Positions 3,402 to 46,686 of a stretch of DNA of 64,000 nt are shown piece by piece (position 1 is the first letter of the stretch; the number at the start of each line of letters is the position of its first letter). The stretch is from Candidatus Elulimicrobium sp. (GTDB lineage: Bacteria; Patescibacteriota; Minisyncoccia; Phycocordibacterales; UBA918). Made by a program: the position numbers and the translations under genes. The stretch lies in NCBI GenBank assembly GCA_020720815.1, contig DYNY01000002.1, forward strand, positions 5,980-69,979, read 5' to 3'. The notes beneath the pieces are model-generated. The model worked only from the letters and a program-made list of their open reading frames with translations, was not told the origin of the DNA and made no database searches.

Positions 3402-5192
3402 GTTACAATATTATTTAGTATGATGAATTTTAACGACAACATAACCAACGCTCGTTTAGCTGAACTACGCAGTGAAGAGGAAGAAAAGTTAGTCCAAGCC
3501 ATGGCACCTCAATACGGACTGGAGTATGTAAATCTTCATGGCTACACCTTAAATCCAGAGGCGGTTGCTACTATTCCCGAAAATAAAGCCCGGTCGGCTG
3601 GTATTGTAGCCTTTGATCACTCACACCAAACACTAAATGTGGCTATGAGGAGTCCTAATAACGCTGTCACCTTACAGGTTCTAGATGAAATCCAAACCAG
3701 TAACCGTCTAACTATCATTCCCTACCTTTGTTCTACTGGCAGTCTCGAACATGCCTGGAAACGCTACGCTGATTTAGTTACATCTAAATCCAGCGAGAAG
3801 GGAGTATTCGATATCGACCCACAAGAAATTATTAAGTTTGTTAAAAGCATTAACAAAAAAGAAGACGCTGCGGAAATGATGGATAAGGTAGGAGGCATCA
3901 ACAATGCCAGACGCGTGACTGAGACACTTGAACTGATATTTGCTGGAGCCATTGCTCTTCGCTCTTCTGATATTCATATCGAACCAGAAGAAAAGGTTGT
4001 CCGTCTTCGTTATCGCCTAGATGGTATTCTGTATGACATCTACGACATTGACCGCTACATCTATGAGCGCATGGTGTCACGCCTAAAACTCCTAGCCGGC
4101 ATGACCCTCAACCAAAAACAACAAGCTCAAGACGGTCGTTTTACTTTTAATGCTGGAGACCGCGAAGTAGAAATTCGCGCCTCAGTTATACCTGGCTCAT
4201 CGGGCGAATCTATTGTTATGCGTATTCTTGACCCATCAGTTGCGAGTTTTACTTTAGAAAAAATCGACCTCAGTCCTGTCTTACGCGAAGCGATGATGTT
4301 GGAGTTAAAAAAGCCTAATGGTCTAATAGTGACCACCGGGCCAACTGGTTCAGGTAAGACCACCGCTCTTTACGCATTTTTGCGAGCCTCTCACACTGAA
4401 GGTGTAAAAATTATAACGATTGAGAATCCAGTTGAATATAAACTCGAAGGTATTGTCCAGACCCAAACTGGTGATGATTACACTTTCGCCTCTGGCTTAC
4501 GAGCAGTTCTACGCCAAGATCCCGACATCATTATGGTGGGAGAAATCCGTGACAAAGAGGTAGCCGAGACAGCTATTCACGCCGCCCAGACTGGACACTT
4601 GGTGTTCTCTACTCTGCATACTAACAGTGCGGTTGGTGGCTTCCCTCGTTTGATTGACCTGGGCATAGAACCACGCATCCTCGGCAGTGCTGTAAGTGCC
4701 TTTCTTGGTCAACGTTTAGTCAGACGACTATGTAATGAATGCAAACAAAGCTACCAAGCGTCTGACGCTGAATTTGCTATTCTAGCCCAAATCATGGCCG
4801 GGCACCCTAAACCCGTAATTTTAGAAAAACCCCTCACCTTATATAAGGCCGTCGGCTGTGCAACCTGTAGCGGACAAGGTTACAAAGGCCGGATGGGTAT
4901 CTTTGAAGCAGTATTGATGGATAAGGCAGTGGAAGAGGTGGTGATTAGAGACCCACGCGAACATCTAATTTTGGAAGCAGCCAGACCTCAGGGTATACCA
5001 ACCATGGTAGAAGATGGTGCAGAAAAAGTCCTTAGAGGTGATACAACCCTAGAAGAGCTTGAGCGTGTAATTGAACTTCCAAAAATTAATCCAATATCCC
5101 CTAACACCAACATTCCGCCAAGGACAGGAGCGACTGAAAAACCAACTGATAACAATAATCCTGACTTATTTCTATCGCACGTAGTTAACTAA
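3387..5192 (+). CDS. pilB: GspE/PilB-family type II/IV secretion or type IV pilus assembly ATPase
   Basis: N-terminal GspII_E-like domain, Walker A GPTGSGKTT, Walker B IIMVGEIRD, and a C-terminal tetracysteine (CNEC...CATC). The start is probably at MMNFND near 3420, since the track start overlaps the tsaE 5' end. Confidence 0.88.
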   Translation: MESVHVTILFSMMNFNDNITNARLAELRSEEEEKLVQAMAPQYGLEYVNLHGYTLNPEAVATIPENKARSAGIVAFDHSHQTLNVAMRSPNNAVTLQVLDEIQTSNRLTIIPYLCSTGSLEHAWKRYADLVTSKSSEKGVFDIDPQEIIKFVKSINKKEDAAEMMDKVGGINNARRVTETLELIFAGAIALRSSDIHIEPEEKVVRLRYRLDGILYDIYDIDRYIYERMVSRLKLLAGMTLNQKQQAQDGRFTFNAGDREVEIRASVIPGSSGESIVMRILDPSVASFTLEKIDLSPVLREAMMLELKKPNGLIVTTGPTGSGKTTALYAFLRASHTEGVKIITIENPVEYKLEGIVQTQTGDDYTFASGLRAVLRQDPDIIMVGEIRDKEVAETAIHAAQTGHLVFSTLHTNSAVGGFPRLIDLGIEPRILGSAVSAFLGQRLVRRLCNECKQSYQASDAEFAILAQIMAGHPKPVILEKPLTLYKAVGCATCSGQGYKGRMGIFEAVLMDKAVEEVVIRDPREHLILEAARPQGIPTMVEDGAEKVLRGDTTLEELERVIELPKINPISPNTNIPPRTGATEKPTDNNNPDLFLSHVVN

Positions 5193-32569: not shown

Positions 32570-32628
32570 AAAACTAAAACCACTGAACACCTACTCTGTA
32601 ATTAGGTGTGTTCAGTGGTTTTAGTTTG
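32570..32628. terminator. Long bidirectional terminator hairpin between the convergent M23 gene and comM
   Basis: aaaactaaaaccactgaacacc...ggtgtgttcagtggttttagttt forms a 22-bp stem. Confidence 0.7.
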
Positions 32629-34132
32629 GAATACGGTAAGAAAGGGCTTCTAGGACATGTTTAGCTTCAATTTCAGTGGCTTCATCGAGGTCGGCAATTG
32701 TCCGAGATACTTTTAATAAGCGGTGATAACTTCGTGGTGATAGATTAAGTTTGGTGGCTGAAAGCTTAAGTAAATCTTTTACCTCGTCATTAATAATTAA
32801 ATAGTGATCAATATCACGACTAGTCATTTCAGCATTGGTGAATATTCCACGGTCGACTAATCTAGCTACTTGGATTGACCTGGCTTTGGTAATTTCTGTC
32901 CTAGCCCTCTCTGTCTCTCCTTCTGGGCGCACTAAATTGGCTAATGTTTCATGTGGTATATGAAGTACTTCAATCCATAAATCAATACGGTCAAGAATTG
33001 GGCCAGATATTTTTTCTTTATAAGTTTCTTTCATTGCTCTAGCTAGGTTGGTAGTACCATCTTCTACTCCACGGTAGGGATTCATTGCCGCTACTAAAAT
33101 AAAATCAGCTGGAAAAACCGCCGTACCCTGGATCCTAGAAATACTAACTACCCTATCTTCTAGTGGTTGTCTTAAAGCATCCAAACTACGTCTTTCAAAC
33201 TCTGGAAACTCATCCATAAATAAGACACCTTTATGAGCGAGAGTCACTTCGCCTGGTTTTGGTTGTGAACCACCACCCACAAGCGCTGTATAAGAGGCTG
33301 TGTGATGGGGAGATCTGAAAGGGGGTATCGAGCTGATAGTTTCCAGGTTCCCGTTAGTGGAATGAATAGCTGTGACGGCCAAGGCATCACTACGGGATAG
33401 TGGTGGTAGTAAACCCTGAAAAGCTCTGGCCAACATTGTCTTACCAGTACCGGGTGGGCCGACTAAAATGACATTATGCCGGCCCGCTGCAGCAATTATT
33501 AGCGCTCGTTTGGCGCTTTCTTGCCCCTTGATATCTTCTAGTACCACTTTACTTTGTCCCCAGGCGGGGGCTATTTCAGTAGTTTTTTGTATCAGGAGTA
33601 GTTGGTGATTGGGATGATTTATTTCACAATGTAGAATAACTTCACGCAATGAGGTGGCTCCATAAATATCAATTCCTTCTACCAAACCTGCTTCCTCAGC
33701 ATTAGCTTTAGGTACAATGACTTTTTTGTAACCATTTAGTTTAGCCACCAGAACGATATTCAAGACTCCTTTTATTGGTCTTAAACTGCCATCCAGACCA
33801 AGCTCACCAACAAAAATAGTATCGGTCACTGGAGAAATTTCTTCCGTGGCGATTAAATAAGCCAAAGCGATAGGGAGATCAAATAAAGGTCCTTCCTTTT
33901 TTAAATCAGCCGGTGATAGCGAAATAGTTATTTTTTGGTTTTGACTTTTTGGTGAATCATAATCAGTATGTTTAATAGCACTACTAACCCTGTCCCTAGC
34001 TTCCTCAATAGCTTTACCAGCCAAACCAACAATTGAAAATGAATGTAATCCTCTAGATAAGTCGGCCTCGATACAAACAACGGTGCCAGATAGAATGTGT
34101 GGTTGTACCGTGTATGTCTTCGCGATGGCCAT
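32621..34132 (-). CDS. comM: YifB/ComM-family Mg-chelatase-like AAA+ ATPase
   Basis: Lon-like N-domain, Walker A ILVGPPGTGKTML, Walker B VLFMDEFPEF, and a C-terminal ChlI-like domain. Confidence 0.9.
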   Translation of the reverse strand: MAIAKTYTVQPHILSGTVVCIEADLSRGLHSFSIVGLAGKAIEEARDRVSSAIKHTDYDSPKSQNQKITISLSPADLKKEGPLFDLPIALAYLIATEEISPVTDTIFVGELGLDGSLRPIKGVLNIVLVAKLNGYKKVIVPKANAEEAGLVEGIDIYGATSLREVILHCEINHPNHQLLLIQKTTEIAPAWGQSKVVLEDIKGQESAKRALIIAAAGRHNVILVGPPGTGKTMLARAFQGLLPPLSRSDALAVTAIHSTNGNLETISSIPPFRSPHHTASYTALVGGGSQPKPGEVTLAHKGVLFMDEFPEFERRSLDALRQPLEDRVVSISRIQGTAVFPADFILVAAMNPYRGVEDGTTNLARAMKETYKEKISGPILDRIDLWIEVLHIPHETLANLVRPEGETERARTEITKARSIQVARLVDRGIFTNAEMTSRDIDHYLIINDEVKDLLKLSATKLNLSPRSYHRLLKVSRTIADLDEATEIEAKHVLEALSYRIPN

Positions 34133-34515: not shown

Positions 34516-36207
34516 TTATTTTAATAGGTTAGTAATTTCAATAAAAGCGGTAGAGTTAGTAGTAATAATAACAGTATCACGATTTTTTAGTCCGTAAACT
34601 AAAAGTTCCACGCCTGATAGGGTGCGTAATATCCTAACGTCATTTTTTTCTATTACGGCGTCTGTAAATACAGCTGTCTTAATGGAACCAGTGTCATAAA
34701 GTTGATTGTAATTGAATAGTAGTGATACATCCTCATAAATGGTCGTTTCCCAATTTAACATTCCGCCCCGAGCGGTGGTGTAGTCGGCCGTATCTAACAA
34801 GATAAATGGAACGCTCTTACGAAGACCACCAAAGTAAATATAAGATATTGACTTAGTAAAAGCTGGCTCTAATGGAAACTCTAGAGTTTTCATTACCGTC
34901 TCGGGCTTAAGTAAGGTTTCCCCTCCGGCGCCGGCCACAAAAATTTGTTGTGCTACATCTCCTTCGGTGGTCTTGAAGGAATTGACCACATCTTCAAATA
35001 GACCAGCTTTGGTTAAAGTACCAGGATAGATAAGTTGCAGTGGACCCTCGATTAATGTTTTGTAACTAGGGGTCGTATTTAGAGAGTAATCAGGTATTCT
35101 GTTACTAATCCAAAAATAGCTAGTGGCAGAAATTATAATTAAAGCTAACACAACACTAAATACACCGATAGATATAGTATTAATATTAATGCTAAAGAGC
35201 CATTCTTTGAGATTAGTTGGTTGTAGTTTACTAACTTTCCCTCCCGCCAGCTCTTCTGGTTGGACAACCGTTATAGGCGTTACCTCCGGAGTAACTGAAT
35301 CTTCTTTCGCTACGGGTGCTGGAGTAGTCACGACTGGCGTTACCGCGACTAATGGTCTTGCTACTACTGGCTCTACCACCTCATGTAGTGTGCCTCTAAC
35401 ATTTGGCAAACTGCCCATGGCTATTATCTCTGGGGTTTTTGGTTGTGGCAAAGTTTTCTTGCTTGGTGTAGCCTCACTTAAATTAAGGAAACTTTTTTTA
35501 AGCACTACCTGAACATTACTTATGTTATTTTCACCAGCTTCAAGTAGTGGGAAGCCTGGTTCTGTATTAGCTGTCCAGATAGTGGTTGGAGTTTTTGGTG
35601 TTGCCCTCTCTTTACGTAATCTGACACGTTCATGGATACTTAGTGCATCAGCGCTGGCAAATTTTCCAGTTTTAGAAGTGGCTTTTTGGATGACTCCTTT
35701 TCGATGTGAAGTTGGAGGTACAGTATATTTTGGAGTTTTTTTAGCTACTTGTTTTTCTCTTAGATCAGCAAACCACTGACTTATACTTTTAATAATGGCT
35801 GGGAATAAGCGAAAGCGGTTTCTCTTGGCATCGGTAATAATGACTCCTGGTCGAGTGTTACTACTTTCGACAATTATAGTCTCCCCTTCTGTCTTAGGGG
35901 CTGATATGGGTTTAAGAGTTTGCTCTGGTTCTTCCTCATCCCTTCTAACATCAGACTTATTGTCAATTGACTTTACAACTTTTACTATAGGTTCAGTTTT
36001 AACACCTGGTTTAATTTTATTACCAGTCCAACTAGGTGCGCGGTAGATTTGAGGCTCTTCTCTCGTTTCAAACTCATCTGATAAGGAAGCATCATTTGTT
36101 TCAGTTTTAGTCGAGGCATTGTCAAAAGCTTGTTTTTTTGCCATGTCCTTAGCAAAAGTACGAACACTTGGAAGTGAGTTAGAAGATTTATGCTTATCCA
36201 TTACCAT
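34516..36207 (-). CDS. Bitopic membrane protein: disordered Pro/Thr-rich cytoplasmic N-half, one TM, and an extracellular C-domain
   Basis: 563 aa with TM GVFSVVLALIIISATSYFWI near residue 340. No recognisable motif. Confidence 0.6.
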   Translation of the reverse strand: MVMDKHKSSNSLPSVRTFAKDMAKKQAFDNASTKTETNDASLSDEFETREEPQIYRAPSWTGNKIKPGVKTEPIVKVVKSIDNKSDVRRDEEEPEQTLKPISAPKTEGETIIVESSNTRPGVIITDAKRNRFRLFPAIIKSISQWFADLREKQVAKKTPKYTVPPTSHRKGVIQKATSKTGKFASADALSIHERVRLRKERATPKTPTTIWTANTEPGFPLLEAGENNISNVQVVLKKSFLNLSEATPSKKTLPQPKTPEIIAMGSLPNVRGTLHEVVEPVVARPLVAVTPVVTTPAPVAKEDSVTPEVTPITVVQPEELAGGKVSKLQPTNLKEWLFSININTISIGVFSVVLALIIISATSYFWISNRIPDYSLNTTPSYKTLIEGPLQLIYPGTLTKAGLFEDVVNSFKTTEGDVAQQIFVAGAGGETLLKPETVMKTLEFPLEPAFTKSISYIYFGGLRKSVPFILLDTADYTTARGGMLNWETTIYEDVSLLFNYNQLYDTGSIKTAVFTDAVIEKNDVRILRTLSGVELLVYGLKNRDTVIITTNSTAFIEITNLLK

Positions 36208-40604: not shown

Positions 40605-41513
40605 TTATTTAGAATAAAGTTTAAGTAATGCTTCTATCCCCCTTTTATTCTTTTCCCATTCCGTGCTAGTACGAGTTTCTAACTCCACCGTTATTGCCGG
40701 GATTCCAATGGAAGCTAACCAACCCTCGGCATCGCCACTTACTGGATAGGCATCAAAGCTAGAGACAGATTTATATTTAGCCGCTACAGCATAAGTATTC
40801 ATTACAATAATTGTCTGTGCCAAAATTCCAGATTCACACTCCGAAGCATAGACAGCATTAGCTTGACTGTGCCAGAAGACAACTACCTGCGGAGAAATTT
40901 TTTTCACCAACTCGCGTAAGGCGACTGCTTCTGGTTCAGAAAAAGCCTCGGTTCCAGCCACCACTGTCTTGCCACGCCAAGTACTGGTTGGTTGCCACTT
41001 ACAATCAAAGTTTCGATTAAGGTCAACGTTGTTGGCGTTAAACCTACCGGCGCCAGTTTGATGGGCGTCATTTGGGGGAATTTCTTCGCTGGTAAATCTC
41101 CCCTCTTTTTTTACAACGTCATAAAGCCCATCTGGATTGAGAGACGGTACTACAGTGATACTTAAATTGTTTGGTAATACAAATTTACCACTTTCTAGTT
41201 CATCAATAAATTGATAGGCTAACAGGACACTGTTCCACTCATAACCTCCGTGTATACCGCCAACGAAAAGTAAATTATCCGTTCCGGTTCCAAAAGTGTA
41301 GCTTTCAATAACTCGACCCTCAACGGAGGTACCAATTACTGTTTTACCAAGAATGGTTGGTGCGGAAAGAGTGTCAGCTATTTCTGGTATTACTTTTTCT
41401 TCTGGCTTTGGAGCGATTAACTGGCCGGGGAATAGTGCCCAGGTTGTAACTAAGCAAACACCGAAGATTACTATAAAAGTGATCAACCAAACTTTTTTTA
41501 TGGCGGGGGGCAT
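40605..41513 (-). CDS. Secreted M14-family zinc carboxypeptidase
   Basis: Signal/TM N-terminus, GGIHGGYEWN (GIHxREW-like), LNPDG, VDLNRNF and WHSQ motifs. Confidence 0.75.
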   Translation of the reverse strand: MPPAIKKVWLITFIVIFGVCLVTTWALFPGQLIAPKPEEKVIPEIADTLSAPTILGKTVIGTSVEGRVIESYTFGTGTDNLLFVGGIHGGYEWNSVLLAYQFIDELESGKFVLPNNLSITVVPSLNPDGLYDVVKKEGRFTSEEIPPNDAHQTGAGRFNANNVDLNRNFDCKWQPTSTWRGKTVVAGTEAFSEPEAVALRELVKKISPQVVVFWHSQANAVYASECESGILAQTIIVMNTYAVAAKYKSVSSFDAYPVSGDAEGWLASIGIPAITVELETRTSTEWEKNKRGIEALLKLYSK

Positions 41514-42445
41514 TATTGTTTAGTAACGTAGTTTAATACAGCTTTTACCCCTTCTTGATTTTTAGCCAGCTCAGTACTTTTATGGTCACTTAGCAGGACA
41601 CTAATGGCGGGAATATTTTGGCTAGCAAACCAGTTAACCATGTCTCCAGTAATTTCGTAATAATCAAATTTCTCGTAAGCAGTATAGCCGGCTGCTTTGG
41701 CAAAAAGATTAGTCAAAGCCTCAGTCCCACTTGATACTCCGTTATTGCAGTTTGAAGCGTAAACACCAGAAGCCGCACTGTACCAGGTCACAATGGCTAC
41801 GGGTTCAGTTTGTGAAACATAGGATTTAATAGCTGAGCTCTCTGGTTCTGAGAAGGCCTCACTACCACCACTGACGCTTCTATTTTGCCAAGTACCAGTC
41901 GCTTGCCACTCACAAGCGAAGTTACGATTGAGATCAACTTCATTGGCATTAAAGCGACCACTAATGAGATTGGCCGGAGAGGTTGAAACATCAGTGGCTG
42001 TGAAACGACCATTTTTCCCAGTTACTAATTTCAAACCATCTGGATTTAATATTGGTATAATGGTGACGGTAACATCTGCGGGGACAATGTTCGGATTGGC
42101 TTTCAGCCAATCAATTACCTCATAAGCCAAAAGTGCGGTGTTCCACGAGTAGCCTCCATGAATGCCTCCAATAAAGAGAACCTCTTTATCACCGACACCA
42201 AAGTGATAAGCTTTTATGTCCAAACCATCTACTGTTTTACCAATAATACTTTCCGGCCCGCGAGTAATCGGAGTGATGGGTACCGGGGTTGTAGTTGATA
42301 CTTCTTCAACTACCGGAGTGATGGGGGTTACTTTGACGCTCGGTTTTTCGTAGGTGGTATCTGTATCACGAGAATTACTAAAGTAATAATAAATGCCACC
42401 AGAGATTATTAGTAAAACAGCGACTACAACTAAAATATTTTTCAT
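41513..42445 (-). CDS. Secreted M14-family zinc carboxypeptidase, a tandem paralog
   Basis: The same motif set (GGIHGGYSWN, LNPDG, VDLNRNF, WYSAAS). It overlaps the downstream paralog by 1 nt. Confidence 0.75.
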   Translation of the reverse strand: MKNILVVVAVLLIISGGIYYYFSNSRDTDTTYEKPSVKVTPITPVVEEVSTTTPVPITPITRGPESIIGKTVDGLDIKAYHFGVGDKEVLFIGGIHGGYSWNTALLAYEVIDWLKANPNIVPADVTVTIIPILNPDGLKLVTGKNGRFTATDVSTSPANLISGRFNANEVDLNRNFACEWQATGTWQNRSVSGGSEAFSEPESSAIKSYVSQTEPVAIVTWYSAASGVYASNCNNGVSSGTEALTNLFAKAAGYTAYEKFDYYEITGDMVNWFASQNIPAISVLLSDHKSTELAKNQEGVKAVLNYVTKQ

Positions 42446-42698: not shown

Positions 42699-45134
42699 TT
42701 AAGATACTGCCAGTTCTGCTTCGGTAAAATTATCTTTACTGAGAGTAATATTTCCACCCTTAATGACAGCACCACTAATTATTAATTGGGCAATTTTTTC
42801 TTCTAGTACATCTTGTAAAACTCGTTGCATAGGCCTGGCACCAAACTGTGGGTTGTATCCTTTTTCCACTAAAAAGTCCATCAGTTCACGATTTACTGTG
42901 AGTTCGTAGCCACGCTCTTTCACTCGTTCGTAAAGTCCTCCGAGCATAAGTCCGGCTATCTGTCCCTGCTCCTCCAATTTTAATGGTTCAAAAATAATTG
43001 TGCTGTCAAAGCGATTAAGAAGTTCTGGACGGAATACTCCTTCTTTAACGATGTGGTTAATTATTTCTTGCGTTAGGGTGGATAGTTCTTGGCGTTGATT
43101 TACGGTACGCAAGATTAGTTGACTTCCGGCATTGCTGGTAGCGATGACAATAGTATTTCGGGCGTTGACCTTATTACCCCTAGCATCAGTAAAAATCCCC
43201 TCATCTAGAATTTGTAGGAAGATATCGTGAACGGCTTTGGCTCCTTTTTCAAACTCATCTAGAAGAAGTACAGCATAGGGATGTTCGCGCAACATGTCAC
43301 CTAGTGTACCGGAGTTTACACCGTCACCAATCAATCTAGTTAGGGCATCAGCACCACTAAATTCTGACATGTCGATGCGGTGCATATTTTTTTCATCACC
43401 AAAAAATACATAGGCCAGGGCTTTAGCGGTTTCGGTTTTACCGACACCGGTTGGGCCAAGAAAAAGAAATGAGCCAATTGGTTTTTCACTGGATTGAATG
43501 CCTGCCCTAGCTCTACGCATGGTACGTGAAATAGCATCAATGGCTCGCTGCTGACCAATGACTCGTTCGTGTAGTTTACTTTCAAGATTGAGTAATAAAT
43601 TTTTTTCGACTTCACCGATAGGTCCGACCGGAATACCAGTTTTTTCACTGACAACACTGTATACATATTCTGGTGTAATCATTACTACCCCTGCATATTG
43701 TGCCCGTGTAGCGATGTCGATAAGCAGTTCAATGGCTTTGTCCGGCATTGCTCCTTCGACAATATATCGATCAGCCGTGTTAGTAATAGTTTGTAATGAA
43801 GCGTAGGTAAACAATACTCCGTAACGAGCCTCGTTTTGTTCGGCGATTCCTTGTAGAAGTTTAGTGGTACTACTTAAGTCTGGGGCGTCTAGTAGAACTT
43901 CTGCAAATCTACGCGAAAAGGCCCCGAGCGGTTCTAGAAAGGTGTGATATGCACCAGGCGTATCGGTGGCGATTATATGAAGCATTGGTGAAGCTAAGTA
44001 CGGGTCTAGTATTTCTGGGATAAATATTCCCATCGCTTCTGCTTCACGGATAAAACTACTAAGATTTTCGATAACAATAATAATATTGCCAGCATTATGA
44101 GCTTCAGTAAAAAGTGAAATGATAGTGTATTCCAACTCTTGTTTATCATGGTGGGTAGCGAAGAGTCTGCTCGTGTCAAGCAAAACCATTTTTTGATCCT
44201 CTACAGCTCCGATTGAGCTACCAGTTTTTAGACGACGATCTACTTCAAGTAATAAGTCAATTGTACCGACCCCGGCTTCACCAATTAGTAGCACATTAGC
44301 TGCTTTTGCTCTAGCTAAAGCTACTTCTACTTCAGCAATTTTCTCCTCAGTAAAAGCATTGTTACTGGTGGTCAAGTTTGAGAAGACGGCACTAGTTTTA
44401 ATATCTCGCGAAAATTTCTCTAATTGGAAAGGGGTGCCGTATGCCCACTCTCGGCCTATACCTTTGGTTTTAGAGAGATTATCTTTACCCCACCAACGCA
44501 TTATCTTTTTCTTTTGGTGGTGCGCTAGGACTACCCAATTTAGGGCACCAAAAAATGCCTCTTCGTTGATACCTTGTTTGGCAATCATTTTTTTAAAGGC
44601 CGTGTCTTGCTGAAGCAAATAATTTCCCAGAGTAATTAAAGAAAAAATCTGATTTTCTGGCAGAGGTATCATCGAAGTGGTAATTTTTACTCTAGGGCTA
44701 GCAAGAAACCCATCAAGAATATCAACAGCCACTCCAGTGCGCAGTAGAATTTCCGTACCCATTTGTGAAATACAAAAAGCTTTCGTCACGTCTTCTTCAT
44801 CGGAAAAAATTTCCGCTACTTCATAGGTAGTGCCGGAAATTTTTTCTTTGTTTAGTCCAAGAATAGAATTGAGTCCGTAAAAATAATAACTGTTAAAGTA
44901 GCTATAGATGAGAATTTGCTCCAACCATAAGGCGGTGGCTATAAGACACACTCCCAATGAAGTATAAGCATAGCTGTTTGAATGAGTAATGGTGAAGCCG
45001 GCACTAGCTAACCCTGAAATTAAAGCAATAGAAAAAAAACTTACTCGCAAAAAACTCAAGGTTCGTCTTTCAATAAAACGTGCAAAAGTAAGAACGGGGC
45101 GGTATTTTTTTATATCTTCAGCAATAGTATACAT
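42699..45134 (-). CDS. Membrane-anchored Clp/Hsp100-family AAA+ protein with a degenerate D1 and an intact D2
   Basis: Two N-terminal TM helices. In D1, Walker A is replaced by LLIGEAGVGTIDLL (no GK[ST]) and Walker B by IIIVIENL. D2 is intact: FLGPTGVGKTETAKALA, LLLDEFEKG, GARPMQRV. Confidence 0.8.
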   Translation of the reverse strand: MYTIAEDIKKYRPVLTFARFIERRTLSFLRVSFFSIALISGLASAGFTITHSNSYAYTSLGVCLIATALWLEQILIYSYFNSYYFYGLNSILGLNKEKISGTTYEVAEIFSDEEDVTKAFCISQMGTEILLRTGVAVDILDGFLASPRVKITTSMIPLPENQIFSLITLGNYLLQQDTAFKKMIAKQGINEEAFFGALNWVVLAHHQKKKIMRWWGKDNLSKTKGIGREWAYGTPFQLEKFSRDIKTSAVFSNLTTSNNAFTEEKIAEVEVALARAKAANVLLIGEAGVGTIDLLLEVDRRLKTGSSIGAVEDQKMVLLDTSRLFATHHDKQELEYTIISLFTEAHNAGNIIIVIENLSSFIREAEAMGIFIPEILDPYLASPMLHIIATDTPGAYHTFLEPLGAFSRRFAEVLLDAPDLSSTTKLLQGIAEQNEARYGVLFTYASLQTITNTADRYIVEGAMPDKAIELLIDIATRAQYAGVVMITPEYVYSVVSEKTGIPVGPIGEVEKNLLLNLESKLHERVIGQQRAIDAISRTMRRARAGIQSSEKPIGSFLFLGPTGVGKTETAKALAYVFFGDEKNMHRIDMSEFSGADALTRLIGDGVNSGTLGDMLREHPYAVLLLDEFEKGAKAVHDIFLQILDEGIFTDARGNKVNARNTIVIATSNAGSQLILRTVNQRQELSTLTQEIINHIVKEGVFRPELLNRFDSTIIFEPLKLEEQGQIAGLMLGGLYERVKERGYELTVNRELMDFLVEKGYNPQFGARPMQRVLQDVLEEKIAQLIISGAVIKGGNITLSKDNFTEAELAVS

Positions 45135-45143
45135 ATAATATAT

Positions 45144-45530
45144 TTATATCAGCAAAAGTATTCCGTAGTATAGACAGCCAACTATTATAATAGGAGCCGT
45201 AACCCAAAAAATATATGTTAAAACTATCCCGACTGAAAGTACTAATAATGAAGTTACCCCTATTACTATTATAACGGTACGCATAAGCATTCCGATTAAG
45301 CGGGAGATTAAATTAATAATAATAAATCCCGCTAAGTCTTCAAAGTTAAAAGAGTTACCGCGTTCTTCAGTCATGCGTTTAAAAGGTGCAAAATATGATT
45401 TGGTTAGTTGTGGTAGAGAAAAGAAATTAGTAACAAACCAAAGAAAGTTTTTCCAAATGTGAAAAATTTCACCGAAGGCGGATGTGTAGTGCCAAAGCAA
45501 ATAATGATGCAAAACAGAAATGAACAACAT
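45144..45530 (-). CDS. Small polytopic membrane protein upstream of the Clp-like gene
   Basis: 128 aa with hydrophobic helices at both ends. Confidence 0.55.
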   Translation of the reverse strand: MLFISVLHHYLLWHYTSAFGEIFHIWKNFLWFVTNFFSLPQLTKSYFAPFKRMTEERGNSFNFEDLAGFIIINLISRLIGMLMRTVIIVIGVTSLLVLSVGIVLTYIFWVTAPIIIVGCLYYGILLLI

Positions 45531-45582
45531 ACATATATAGTATACATGGTGGTATACATTTAGTGTGTAGTGGTAATAAACA

Positions 45583-45617
45583 ACAAAAGCCGCGCCCTTA
45601 GGGGTGCGGCTTTTGTT
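45583..45617 (-). terminator. Terminator downstream of the cold-shock gene
   Basis: aacaaaagccgcgccc-tta-ggggtgcggcttttgtt. Confidence 0.7.
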
Positions 45618-45629
45618 GTTTAGCTTTAA

Positions 45630-45875
<246 letters not shown>

Positions 45876-45968: not shown

Positions 45969-46373
45969 TTAGATTTTAATATTTCTACCCCATTTTCCTA
46001 TATATGGTAGCTCTTTCTCGGTTAGTTTTAGGGCATTAATAATACCAATGATGGAGAATACTAATGCCACAAATGATGCCAGCTTTAGAAAAGGACTAAG
46101 ACCAAAAAGCCAATTACTAAAAATCCAGATGACAAAAGTCATGATGAATACTTGTAGTCCTTGTCTTATGTGGAAATTAATAAAAGGATCTTCTTTCTTG
46201 GTTAGGAATGGAACTAAAACTAGCGGACCAATATATGAGAGGCTAGCCATAATAGTCTGCTCGTTAAAAGTAAAAGTGGTAGCTGGCTTTGGACTTGTAG
46301 TGGTCGTAGTAGTAACAATAGTCGGAGGGGTATTTGGTGAAGTGTTTTCTCCTGGGGTTTGATTATTATCCAT
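45969..46373 (-). CDS. DUF4870-like small membrane protein
   Basis: ASLSYIGPLVLVPFLTKKEDPFINFHIRQGL. Confidence 0.6.
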   Translation of the reverse strand: MDNNQTPGENTSPNTPPTIVTTTTTTSPKPATTFTFNEQTIMASLSYIGPLVLVPFLTKKEDPFINFHIRQGLQVFIMTFVIWIFSNWLFGLSPFLKLASFVALVFSIIGIINALKLTEKELPYIGKWGRNIKI

Positions 46374-46485: not shown

Positions 46486-46686
46486 TTACCAATGTCCGCG
46501 CCAGGAGCGCATTATTTCTTTCATAGTTTTCTTAGCTTGTACTGGATGAAAGATGGCCCAGATAAAAAAACCGAAAATTGTTATTAAACCACCAAACAAT
46601 AATCCGATGAAGATAATGGCAAGCATTACCGGTAACACTAATAGACTTAAAAAAGTTGGTCTACCAATTTTCTTCATGTTTGCCAT
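46486..46686 (-). CDS. Small two-TM membrane protein
   Basis: 66 aa, hydrophobic. Confidence 0.45.
   Translation of the reverse strand: MANMKKIGRPTFLSLLVLPVMLAIIFIGLLFGGLITIFGFFIWAIFHPVQAKKTMKEIMRSWRGHW

Follow-up and report, generated by a model that had tools for sequence, protein, structure and literature searches.

What does a Clp/Hsp100-type ATPase do when it sits in the membrane and one of its two rings has lost its catalytic residues? The question is raised by two adjacent genes in a 64,000-nucleotide (nt) stretch of the Candidatus Elulimicrobium sp. contig DYNY01000002.1, hereafter the window. One encodes an 811-amino-acid (aa) Clp/Hsp100-like ATPase; the other, lying upstream of it across a gap of only 9 nt, encodes a 128-aa membrane protein. 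Clp/Hsp100 proteins are textbook soluble machines, and their subfamilies (ClpA, B, C, E, L, V, X, Hsp104, Skd3, torsin) are generally regarded as well mapped. The initial annotation, made from the letters alone, described a membrane-tethered variant with a single active ring and suggested a dedicated envelope-associated disaggregase or extraction machine. Far from being the curiosity of one genome, the pair turns out to belong to a large, conserved family of two-gene modules in Patescibacteria. The module is a distinct and apparently undescribed branch of the Clp/Hsp100 proteins, widespread in Patescibacteria and misnamed in the databases. We hold the structural description of the module with high confidence; the functional assignment developed below is tentative, and its chance of being right comes close to even without exceeding it.

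Pfam recognizes three regions only in the 811-aa protein, AAA_lid_9 (421-476), AAA_2 (551-711) and ClpB_D2-small (718-797). Together they belong to the layout of the superfamily, which is present: tandem AAA+ modules (D1 and D2), AAA_lid_9 after D1, and an AAA_2-type D2 followed by ClpB_D2-small. The best matches among PDB sequences were ClpB, ClpC and ClpA. E. coli ClpB gave the top sequence score (333 bits, with D2 about 45% identical) and aligned in two stretches, query residues 263-476 with ClpB 184-399 (D1) and 486-799 with 531-847 (D2). An AlphaFold2 (AF2) model of the ATPase, built from a 59-sequence alignment and with a mean predicted local distance difference test score (pLDDT) of 78.9, matched ClpC and ClpB in fold, with ClpC chains best (Foldseek E about 1e-42). 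By fold and domain order the ATPase is a class-I member of the Clp/Hsp100 superfamily. All NCBIfam Clp equivalogs scored far under their cutoffs: 421 bits vs 1232 for ClpB (TIGR03346) and 336 bits vs 993 for ClpA (TIGR02639), the ClpA and ClpC scores being about one third of the cutoff.

The extent of the family was determined by a profile search covering 1.84 billion representatives. The ATPase of the window is identical to the database protein P0001 and has 120 close homologues, 63-89% identical and all of ~811 aa. Beyond these lie at least 150 further clusters at 50% identity, each with a score above 600 bits; with few exceptions their lengths are ~780-860 aa, and in most of them the alignment begins at the N-terminus. 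Motif states were read from an alignment of the ATPase with the genuine E. coli ClpA and ClpB, and the motif census comprised 151 sequences. A further word-index profile search added ~22 family members, which we used for context look-ups. In addition, contigs were scanned for the pattern GPTGVGKTE; 68 of the 80 loci were canonical Clp loci, which served as negative controls, and 11 were distant transmembrane (TM)-anchored relatives. The family is under strong purifying selection at constant length in hundreds of genomes. Some longer members carry extra regions (P0269, 1191 aa; P0273, 921 aa; P0399, 902 aa).

The family is found in Parcubacteria/Paceibacteria. The distant TM-anchored relatives (25-31% identity), which have no GYVG in the pore loop, come from Parcubacteria DG_74_3, a 'Patescibacteria group' and Saccharimonadales/Saccharibacteria, a taxonomy drawn from few source names. 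On the present data, the module is specific to Patescibacteria. Four TM-anchored loci (L012, L016, L019 and L053) were labelled 'uncultured Gammaproteobacteria' by their depositors, and if these labels are correct the family reaches beyond Patescibacteria. The gene content of these loci (RsmH-FtsL-module-GT4, small genes) is Patescibacteria-like, so the labels may be wrong. We found no description of a membrane-anchored Clp/Hsp100 protein in CPR, Patescibacteria or Parcubacteria in the literature, in a search that left most subscription-journal papers outside its reach.

Two N-terminal TM helices had been annotated in the ATPase, and hydropathy, the AF2 model and the charge pattern all predict them. 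The hydrophobic segments at residues ~25-50 and ~58-80 reach maximum Kyte-Doolittle values of 1.8 and 1.7 (19-residue window), and AF2 models a hairpin of two helices at 23-50 and 53-84 with a pLDDT of 82-94. The mean number of Lys and Arg residues is 4.6 in the N-terminal tail before the first helix vs 0.07-0.29 in the loop between the helices. A tail rich and a loop poor in positive charges is a positive-inside signature, suggesting an N-in/C-in hairpin with the AAA+ rings in the cytoplasm. At least two hydrophobic segments are present in 139 of the 151 representatives, and none of this kind in the canonical Clp proteins examined.

The hairpin is followed by a helical N-domain (residues 104-211, pLDDT 83-90). 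Pfam Clp_N is not detected in any of 59 family members. Aligned by hhalign against 59 canonical Clp_N domains, the family profile gave a probability of 84.8% (E 6.6e-6) and spanned both repeats, and in the TM-anchored relatives P0412 and P0413 Clp_N can still be detected by Pfam. On this evidence we read the N-domain as the probable remnant of a strongly diverged Clp_N double repeat. Between N-domain and D1 lies a linker (212-262, low pLDDT) with two hallmarks of the family, RWW and GIGREW-YG. R213 and W215 do not vary anywhere in the family, and W214 is also conserved. The linker might bind the partner or lie at the membrane interface.

The D1 module was annotated as catalytically dead, and alignment with ClpA and ClpB shows that this was not an artefact of motif reading. 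Its Walker A motif is GEAGVGTI vs GE[SP]GVGKT, with both the Lys and the Thr lost, and its Walker B motif is IIVIENLS vs ILFIDE[IL]H, with DE changed to EN. Among the close homologues, the E of Walker B is found in 120/120 and the N in 118/120. The Thr of GKT is replaced in every one of them (by I in 100, M in 19 and V in one); the Lys is retained in 83/120, and a Thr stands in its place in 32/120, the window's protein included. The census of 151 representatives counts a canonical D1 Walker A in 2, the Lys in 49, the DE in 2 and the RR fingers in 18, and returned 148 different Walker A strings. In the pore loop, KYRG is replaced by HHDKQ and the tyrosine is gone. This loop is polar and highly conserved in the window's clade (H328, K331, Q332, E335), where the RR fingers are conserved as well. 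A conserved D1 fold with free catalytic positions points to D1 as a pseudo-ATPase scaffold. Some Saccharibacteria versions keep a GxxGxGK[ST] motif in D1.

D2 has the full set of Walker A, Walker B, sensor and GARPxxR motifs that had been ascribed to it. Compared with ClpA and ClpB, GPTGVGKT, LLLDEFEK, the sensor-1 TSN, the arginine-finger NR (R708, equivalent to R756 of ClpB) and the sensor-2 GARPMQR are intact. They are invariant or nearly so in the 120 close homologues, and among the 151 representatives GPTGVGKT occurs in 140, TSN in 148, GAR in 141, NR in 150 and DE-F/L-EK in essentially all. These motifs suggest that D2 is the sole motor ring.

The pore-loop tyrosine is considered essential to the Clp/Hsp100 mechanism. 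In D2 of the window's ATPase a six-residue deletion takes out PPGYVG and leaves LIGDGVNSGTL, and GYVG was found in 0/151 family representatives. The loop is short throughout the family. An aromatic residue, usually the Phe of G-S-F, is kept in 82/151 clusters; in the 34 clusters closest to the window the loop has 7 residues, none of them aromatic, and in the window's clade its tip is variable. We also looked for the ClpP-docking tripeptide [ILV]-G-[FL]. The window's ATPase has ELSTL where ClpA has SIGLI, with no IGF/LGF-type motif, and a tripeptide of the ClpP type occurs in 1/151 representatives, which is consistent with chance. The coiled-coil M-domain is absent from 151/151: there is no counterpart of ClpB residues ~400-530, and D1 and D2 are joined by 11 residues vs 133 in ClpB. 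The loss of both pore tyrosines, the missing M-domain and ClpP loop and the probable degenerate Clp_N were not part of the initial annotation.

These losses go together with the anchor. Every TM-bearing relative is without GYVG, the D1 KYRG loop and the M-domain, and the D1 RR fingers are missing from all of them except the window's clade. In every TM-less relative, GYVG, the KYRG loop, the M-domain and the RR fingers are all present.

The 128-aa protein encoded upstream had no match in Pfam or NCBIfam. It has 118 homologues, all called 'hypothetical' where they are named. Its N-terminal helical region is rich in aromatic residues (WHY, WF and FFS motifs) and its C-terminal helices are very hydrophobic (Kyte-Doolittle up to 2.9), in keeping with the membrane protein that had been annotated. 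A charged loop, P-W/F-K-R...E-R-G...F-E-D, is conserved, and R77 and R84 are invariant in a helix (67-84) that is essentially without acidic residues. The AF2 model is all-helical (pLDDT 90.9; helices 2-15, 17-36, 39-44 and 63-127). A fold search of this model against the PDB gave no match (best E 1.8), and no AAA-like fold was seen. In the ATPase, the second TM helix carries a conserved Glu near its cytoplasmic end (E72, part of WLEQ in the window's protein and of an 'LE' across the wider family). This Glu and R77/R84 of the small protein could form an inter-subunit charge pair, which we put forward as a candidate only.

The co-conservation of the two genes was to be checked, and it holds. 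In every assessable locus the ATPase gene is directly preceded by a homologue of the small gene, across a few-nt gap or with an overlap: the window, L001-L004, L007-L013, L016, L021, L027, L043, L053, L087 and L092-L096. The locus L019 starts at a contig edge, and its upstream gene is not assessable. L001-L004 are syntenic relatives; in L007-L009 the ATPases are 36-38% identical and the neighbourhoods wholly different, and the small gene is still upstream. A hidden Markov model (HMM) of the small protein, searched over the six-frame open reading frames (ORFs) of all loci in hand, matched only ORFs abutting TM-anchored Clp-like genes, those of the DG_74_3, 'Patescibacteria group' and Saccharibacteria loci among them; around canonical Clp genes it matched nothing out to about 5 kb. 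The small proteins of L012, L016 and L093 are divergent and share the same pattern, FPxWWY ... F-x-P-M-[YF]-G ... GR..SF..R. As a homology-independent test we counted any ORF of 90-165 aa with a strongly hydrophobic segment that ends at most 40 nt from the Clp start. Such an ORF was present in 11/17 anchored loci vs 0/66 canonical loci (Fisher p = 8e-10), and the six misses were traced to naive start calls or a fusion locus.

Natural fusions of the two genes were also found, in two lineages. In P0411 the small domain occupies residues 4-116 (E 6e-19), and in P0420, which is present on five contigs from independent samples, residues 7-86. A separate small gene is absent from both fusion loci. 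Such Rosetta-stone evidence suggests that the small protein and the ATPase act as one unit. All traits by which we propose to recognize the family occur together in the window: the TM hairpin, the RWW linker, a degenerate D1, an intact D2 with DEFEK, the short loop and an abutting upstream membrane gene of ~115-135 aa.

The genes next to the module are repeatedly division or cell-wall genes across independent lineages, which bears out the envelope association suggested at the start. The order MraZ-MraW-FtsL-module-GT4 (MraY/WecA-type) is seen in L093 and L016, TGT-module-GT4 in L012 and module-MraZ-MraW in L010. An FtsQ-type POTRA protein precedes the module in L007, L008 and L095, with Dus on the other side; L009, L092 and L096 are syntenic with these loci; their upstream gene is equal in size, but no POTRA match is recorded for it. 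The module overlaps a following Amidase_3 gene in L096, is preceded by LCP in L013, is divergent from MurT in L043 and is followed by a polyprenyl glycosylphosphotransferase and GT1 in L011. In the window, L001 and L003 it is followed by two MpaA-like M14 peptidases. In L094 a transglycosylase and VanY lie within about 3 kb of it. The same contig, which is Saccharibacteria-like, encodes a Roadblock/LC7 (MglB-like) protein two genes upstream of the module (4042-4533).

Genetic data are available for the saccharibacterium Southlakia epibionticum (PMC10633639). Its SEML1_0700 is an 860-aa 'AAA family ATPase' with AAA_lid_9 at 415-471, AAA_2 at 544-706 and D2-small at 713-792 and with no Clp_N, and SEML1_0701, a 127-aa hypothetical protein, is encoded upstream and overlaps it (PMC10633639). 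MurT and GatD are divergently encoded beside the pair, and SEML1_0700 is marked as a core family of Saccharibacteria (PMC10633639). From this layout and the Saccharibacteria loci examined, SEML1_0700 and SEML1_0701 are likely orthologues of the window's pair. In transposon sequencing (Tn-seq) both genes were scored NE/NE/GD over three passages, and their normalised reads fell in parallel, from 4124 to 2517 to 1638 for SEML1_0700 and from 258 to 157 to 51 for SEML1_0701 (PMC10633639, Tables S1 and S2). The same genome encodes ClpP (SEML1_0493) and a canonical ClpC (SEML1_0512), which carries a UVR motif and two Clp_N repeats; the main text of the Tn-seq paper does not discuss SEML1_0700/0701 (PMC10633639).

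From the observed architecture, motif states, co-conservation of the pair, fusions and neighbourhoods, we infer a hexameric ATPase in physical complex with the small protein. The explanation we favour is a two-subunit membrane AAA+ machine of Patescibacteria that is driven by D2 and remodels envelope or divisome clients, a proposal that we consider evenly balanced between right and wrong. The hairpin would anchor the large subunit, leaving the rings in the cytoplasm with the N-domain/D1 face toward the membrane. D1 would be a structural pseudo-ATPase ring that scaffolds the assembly, in which some homologues may still bind nucleotide, and D2 hydrolysis would be the only motive force. The small polytopic protein would be an obligate partner, probably a membrane platform or an adaptor together with the hairpins. 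The output would be remodelling, release or dislocation of clients, as opposed to proteolysis or bulk disaggregation.

The direction of action can be proposed from known Clp proteins. In ClpA and ClpC, substrates enter at the N-domain/D1 face and leave at D2 onto ClpP. An N-terminal anchor combined with this N-to-D2 direction would make the entry face look onto the membrane, the arrangement known from FtsH, a geometry that suits pulling on the cytoplasmic parts of membrane proteins and not export. The lack of a ClpP loop and an M-domain argues against both client degradation and cooperation with DnaK. The lack of pore aromatics, together with a D1 loop, an N-domain and an RWW linker that are without exception polar and strongly conserved, favours dedicated clients over general threading. 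These would most likely be membrane-associated proteins of the dcw machinery, which serves division and the cell wall. The machine of the window's clade might exert a short-range pull or act as an ATP-driven switch on few dedicated clients, and members with the GSF Phe may still thread. Going further, the module may be a part of the division and cell-wall apparatus in which a single active Clp-type ring remodels or resets divisome or lipid-linked-precursor enzymes without classical threading; the module lies within the dcw cluster or adjoins it, and in some lineages it is placed between FtsL and an MraY/WecA-type transferase. This more specific version is possible, and we think it rather unlikely.

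Several observations weigh against the machine proposed here. The hydropathy of the ATPase's TM segments is only moderate (1.7-1.8), and the hexamer and the complex are putative. No envelope gene lies beside the module in L027 (where TatC does), L053, L087 and both fusion loci, and several of the FtsQ contexts are mutually syntenic and hence not independent. The division and cell-wall link was counted without a background model and is a strong lead that falls short of proof. In Tn-seq the fitness defect is mild, and SEML1_0700/0701 are taken as orthologues by layout and not by sequence. With no pore-loop aromatic, the window's clade offers no obvious structural basis even for short-range gripping, and as about half of the wider family keeps the GSF Phe, the mechanism may differ between clades.

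Other explanations have to be weighed against this. The database name implies a ClpP-partner unfoldase of the ClpA/ClpC type, and it can point to the closest fold and sequence matches (ClpC, ClpB and ClpA) and to the missing M-domain, as in ClpA. This reading is already contradicted by the motif evidence. There is no IGL/IGF tripeptide at the site of SIGLI in ClpA (1/151 in the family), neither ring has its pore-loop tyrosine, and scores reach about a third of the NCBIfam ClpA/ClpC cutoffs. The TM anchor and the obligate membrane partner do not fit either, and ClpP is accompanied by a canonical ClpC that carries Clp_N and UVR in the saccharibacterium in which the apparent orthologue occurs. 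We regard a ClpP partner as very improbable. A membrane-tethered ClpB-type disaggregase, or a general membrane-protein extractase that threads processively, is what was initially suggested, and part of that suggestion is supported: an entry face at the membrane fits the pulling out of clients. In favour are also the intact D2 motor, the precedents of FtsH and Msp1 for extraction by membrane AAA+ proteins, and the D2-loop aromatic in 82/151 clusters, by which threading may be ancestral. Disaggregation by ClpB/Hsp104 requires the M-domain, for DnaK coupling, and an active D1. With no M-domain, hence no DnaK coupling, and a dead D1, the disaggregase reading is not supported. Generic processive threading is in turn doubtful for the window's clade, which has no aromatic in either loop and a variable tip and whose conserved polar D1 loop (H328, K331, Q332, E335) fits a specific ligand better; moreover, transposon disruption costs little fitness. 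Taken as a whole we think this explanation unlikely.

The same absence of pore aromatics, seen together with an obligate membrane partner, would suit a non-threading ATP switch in which D2 drives assembly and disassembly with the small protein and so regulates an envelope enzyme or complex. Torsins, which derive from a Clp D2, are membrane-associated, lack aromatic pore loops and have membrane cofactors (PMC5425593), set an example. The D2 of our ATPase has its own arginine finger (NR in 150/151) and all catalytic motifs, so no cofactor is needed for the active site. Furthermore, no AAA-like fold was seen in the small partner, the pore-loop Phe persists in half of the family, and the ATPase has two rings. 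A switch of this kind appears improbable to us. An export motor that pushes substrates through a channel formed by the hairpin and the small subunit, like HSP101-EXP2 of PTEX, would also place a Clp/Hsp100 ring on a membrane assembly. Epibiotic Patescibacteria must send proteins to their surface or host, and TatC adjoins the module in one locus (L027). The anchor sits at the N-terminus, where substrates would enter, and the D2 exit face, going by the direction of ClpA, ClpC and HSP101, would open into the cytoplasm; no secretion genes recur in the neighbourhoods and the window's clade is without pore-loop aromatics, which makes export a very remote prospect. Least credible of all is that the ATPase is a decaying Clp paralogue or a defence ATPase of the Dodola DolB type, even though D1 is degenerate and the PADLOC models DolB and PDC-M37B match. 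These matches are confined to the generic D2 core (506-674) and the small protein has none. Strong purifying selection at constant length over hundreds of genomes, a conserved housekeeping synteny (S15, PNPase, CCA-adding enzyme, SerRS, dcw genes) in place of a variable island, and the 'core family' flag in Saccharibacteria all point the other way. Membership in a defence system was rejected on the partial PADLOC matches and the housekeeping context, and a pseudogene on conservation and context.

The surroundings of the module in the window are listed with its parts in the table below. The neighbours are housekeeping genes: S15, PNPase, an NYN protein, an XerC-like protein, CspA, TrmB, ExoIII and the CCA-adding enzyme. 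Between the cold-shock gene and the module lies a perfect hairpin, which from its sequence is likely a bidirectional intrinsic terminator. As this separates cspA from the module, the module is probably a transcription unit of its own. Scans for promoters and ribosome-binding sites around the module found sigma-70-like matches to be rarer than in shuffled sequence. The tandem M14 peptidases immediately downstream, weakly similar to the murein tripeptide amidase MpaA, may trim peptidoglycan peptides outside the cell. Such a pair also follows the module in L001-L003, only in the window's clade, and is absent from the distant loci; it is context and not core of the module. No Clp paralogue of the ATPase was found elsewhere in the 64-kb window. 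The gene order CSD-DUF4870 upstream of the module is common to the window, L001 and L002. Two further genes of the window were noted, an ORF adjoining PNPase and a ComM/YifB-type protein that is unrelated to Clp.

Table. The two-gene module and surrounding features of the window (positions count from the first letter of the window).
Feature	Positions	Strand	Description or evidence
Small-membrane-subunit gene	45144-45530	-	128 aa; ORF list
R77 and R84 of the small protein	45279-45302	-	Invariant
Membrane-anchored Clp/Hsp100-like ATPase gene	42699-45134	-	811 aa; ORF list, Pfam, NCBIfam, fold match
N-terminal TM helical hairpin, residues 23-84	44883-45068	-	Predicted N-in/C-in; hydropathy, AF2, charge
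E72 in the second TM helix	44919-44921	-	WLEQ
Helical N-domain, residues 104-211	44502-44825	-	Clp_N-like; hhalign, Pfam, AF2
Linker, residues 212-262	44349-44501	-	RWW and GIGREW-YG motifs; conservation
D1 AAA+ module, residues 263-480	43695-44348	-	Catalytically degenerate; alignment, motif census
D1 Walker A	44259-44282	-	GEAGVGTI
D1 pore-loop region	44130-44159	-	ATHHDKQELE
D1 Walker B	44058-44081	-	IIVIENLS
D1 RR fingers	43908-43913	-	Kept
D2 AAA+ module and D2-small domain, residues 486-800	42735-43679	-	Catalytically intact
D2 Walker A	43434-43457	-	GPTGVGKT
D2 pore loop	43302-43334	-	Shortened; LIGDGVNSGTL
D2 Walker B	43245-43268	-	LLLDEFEK
Perfect hairpin with 20-bp stem	45577-45622		A-run and T-run on the flanks; consensus scan
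Cold-shock gene (CspA)	45630-45866	-	Upstream of the small membrane gene
DUF4870 membrane protein	45969-46373	-	Thr-rich low-complexity N-terminus
66-aa ORF	46486-46686	-	Two TM segments
Two tandem TM-anchored M14 zinc peptidases	40605-42445	-	Weakly MpaA-like; immediately downstream of the module
563-aa ORF adjoining PNPase	34516-36207	-	No Pfam match
ComM/YifB-type Mg-chelatase-like AAA+ protein	32621-34132	-	N-terminal Lon_C/ChlI domain

The module adds to the Clp/Hsp100 proteins a large, conserved, membrane-integrated branch that works with a single active ring and has an obligate membrane subunit. Many of its members have dropped the pore-loop tyrosine. For those who study AAA+ mechanisms it is a natural experiment on how a Clp ring functions without aromatic pore loops. 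A large part of uncultivated bacterial diversity is made up of Patescibacteria, whose gene sets leave very little to spare. The core-gene status of the module and its link to division and cell wall make it an entry point to envelope building and division in these episymbionts, and Southlakia epibionticum is a tractable organism with transposon data. If divisome and cell-wall remodelling is indeed what it does, this would be a mechanism without counterpart in model bacteria. It would also be, if true, an independently arisen bacterial analogue of the torsin-cofactor principle.

Compared with known systems, the ATPase resembles ClpA and ClpC in its tandem AAA+ modules, D2-small and putative Clp_N-type N-domain, and like ClpA it has no long M-domain. 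It differs from both in its TM hairpin, obligate small partner, degenerate D1 and lack of the KYRG and GYVG tyrosines, as well as in having no IGL/IGF loop, an N-domain in which Pfam detects no Clp_N and scores of about a third of the cutoffs. With ClpB/Hsp104 it shares the highest sequence scores and the absence of a ClpP loop, whereas the missing M-domain, inactive D1, loss of both pore tyrosines and membrane anchor set it apart. The partial PADLOC matches to DolB and PDC-M37B extend over the D2 core (506-674) only, where a defence system would have a full-length match and a partner defence gene.

In geometry, with N-terminal TM helices, a cytoplasmic AAA+ ring and the entry face to the bilayer, the closest likeness is to FtsH and Msp1/ATAD1, and FtsH works with the membrane partners HflK/C. 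This is an analogy, with no homology beyond the AAA+ fold: the ATPase belongs to the Clp/Hsp100 clade and not to the classic AAA proteins, has two rings of which one is dead, carries no M41 or other peptidase domain detectable by Pfam, and in the window's clade lacks an aromatic pore loop. HSP101-EXP2 of the Plasmodium PTEX likewise couples a class-I Hsp100 hexamer functionally to a membrane assembly. HSP101, however, is soluble, has its pore tyrosines and both rings active and docks via its D2 face, whereas the N-terminal anchor gives our ATPase the opposite polarity. The likeness to torsin and LAP1/LULL1 is functional only and lies in a Clp-D2-related, membrane-associated ATPase with no aromatic pore loop and with a membrane cofactor (PMC5425593). 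Torsin is a single ring in the eukaryotic ER lumen whose arginine finger is supplied by an AAA-like cofactor, whereas the ATPase of the window brings its own D2 arginine finger, a D1 ring and an N-domain, and its membrane partner is a small helical protein.

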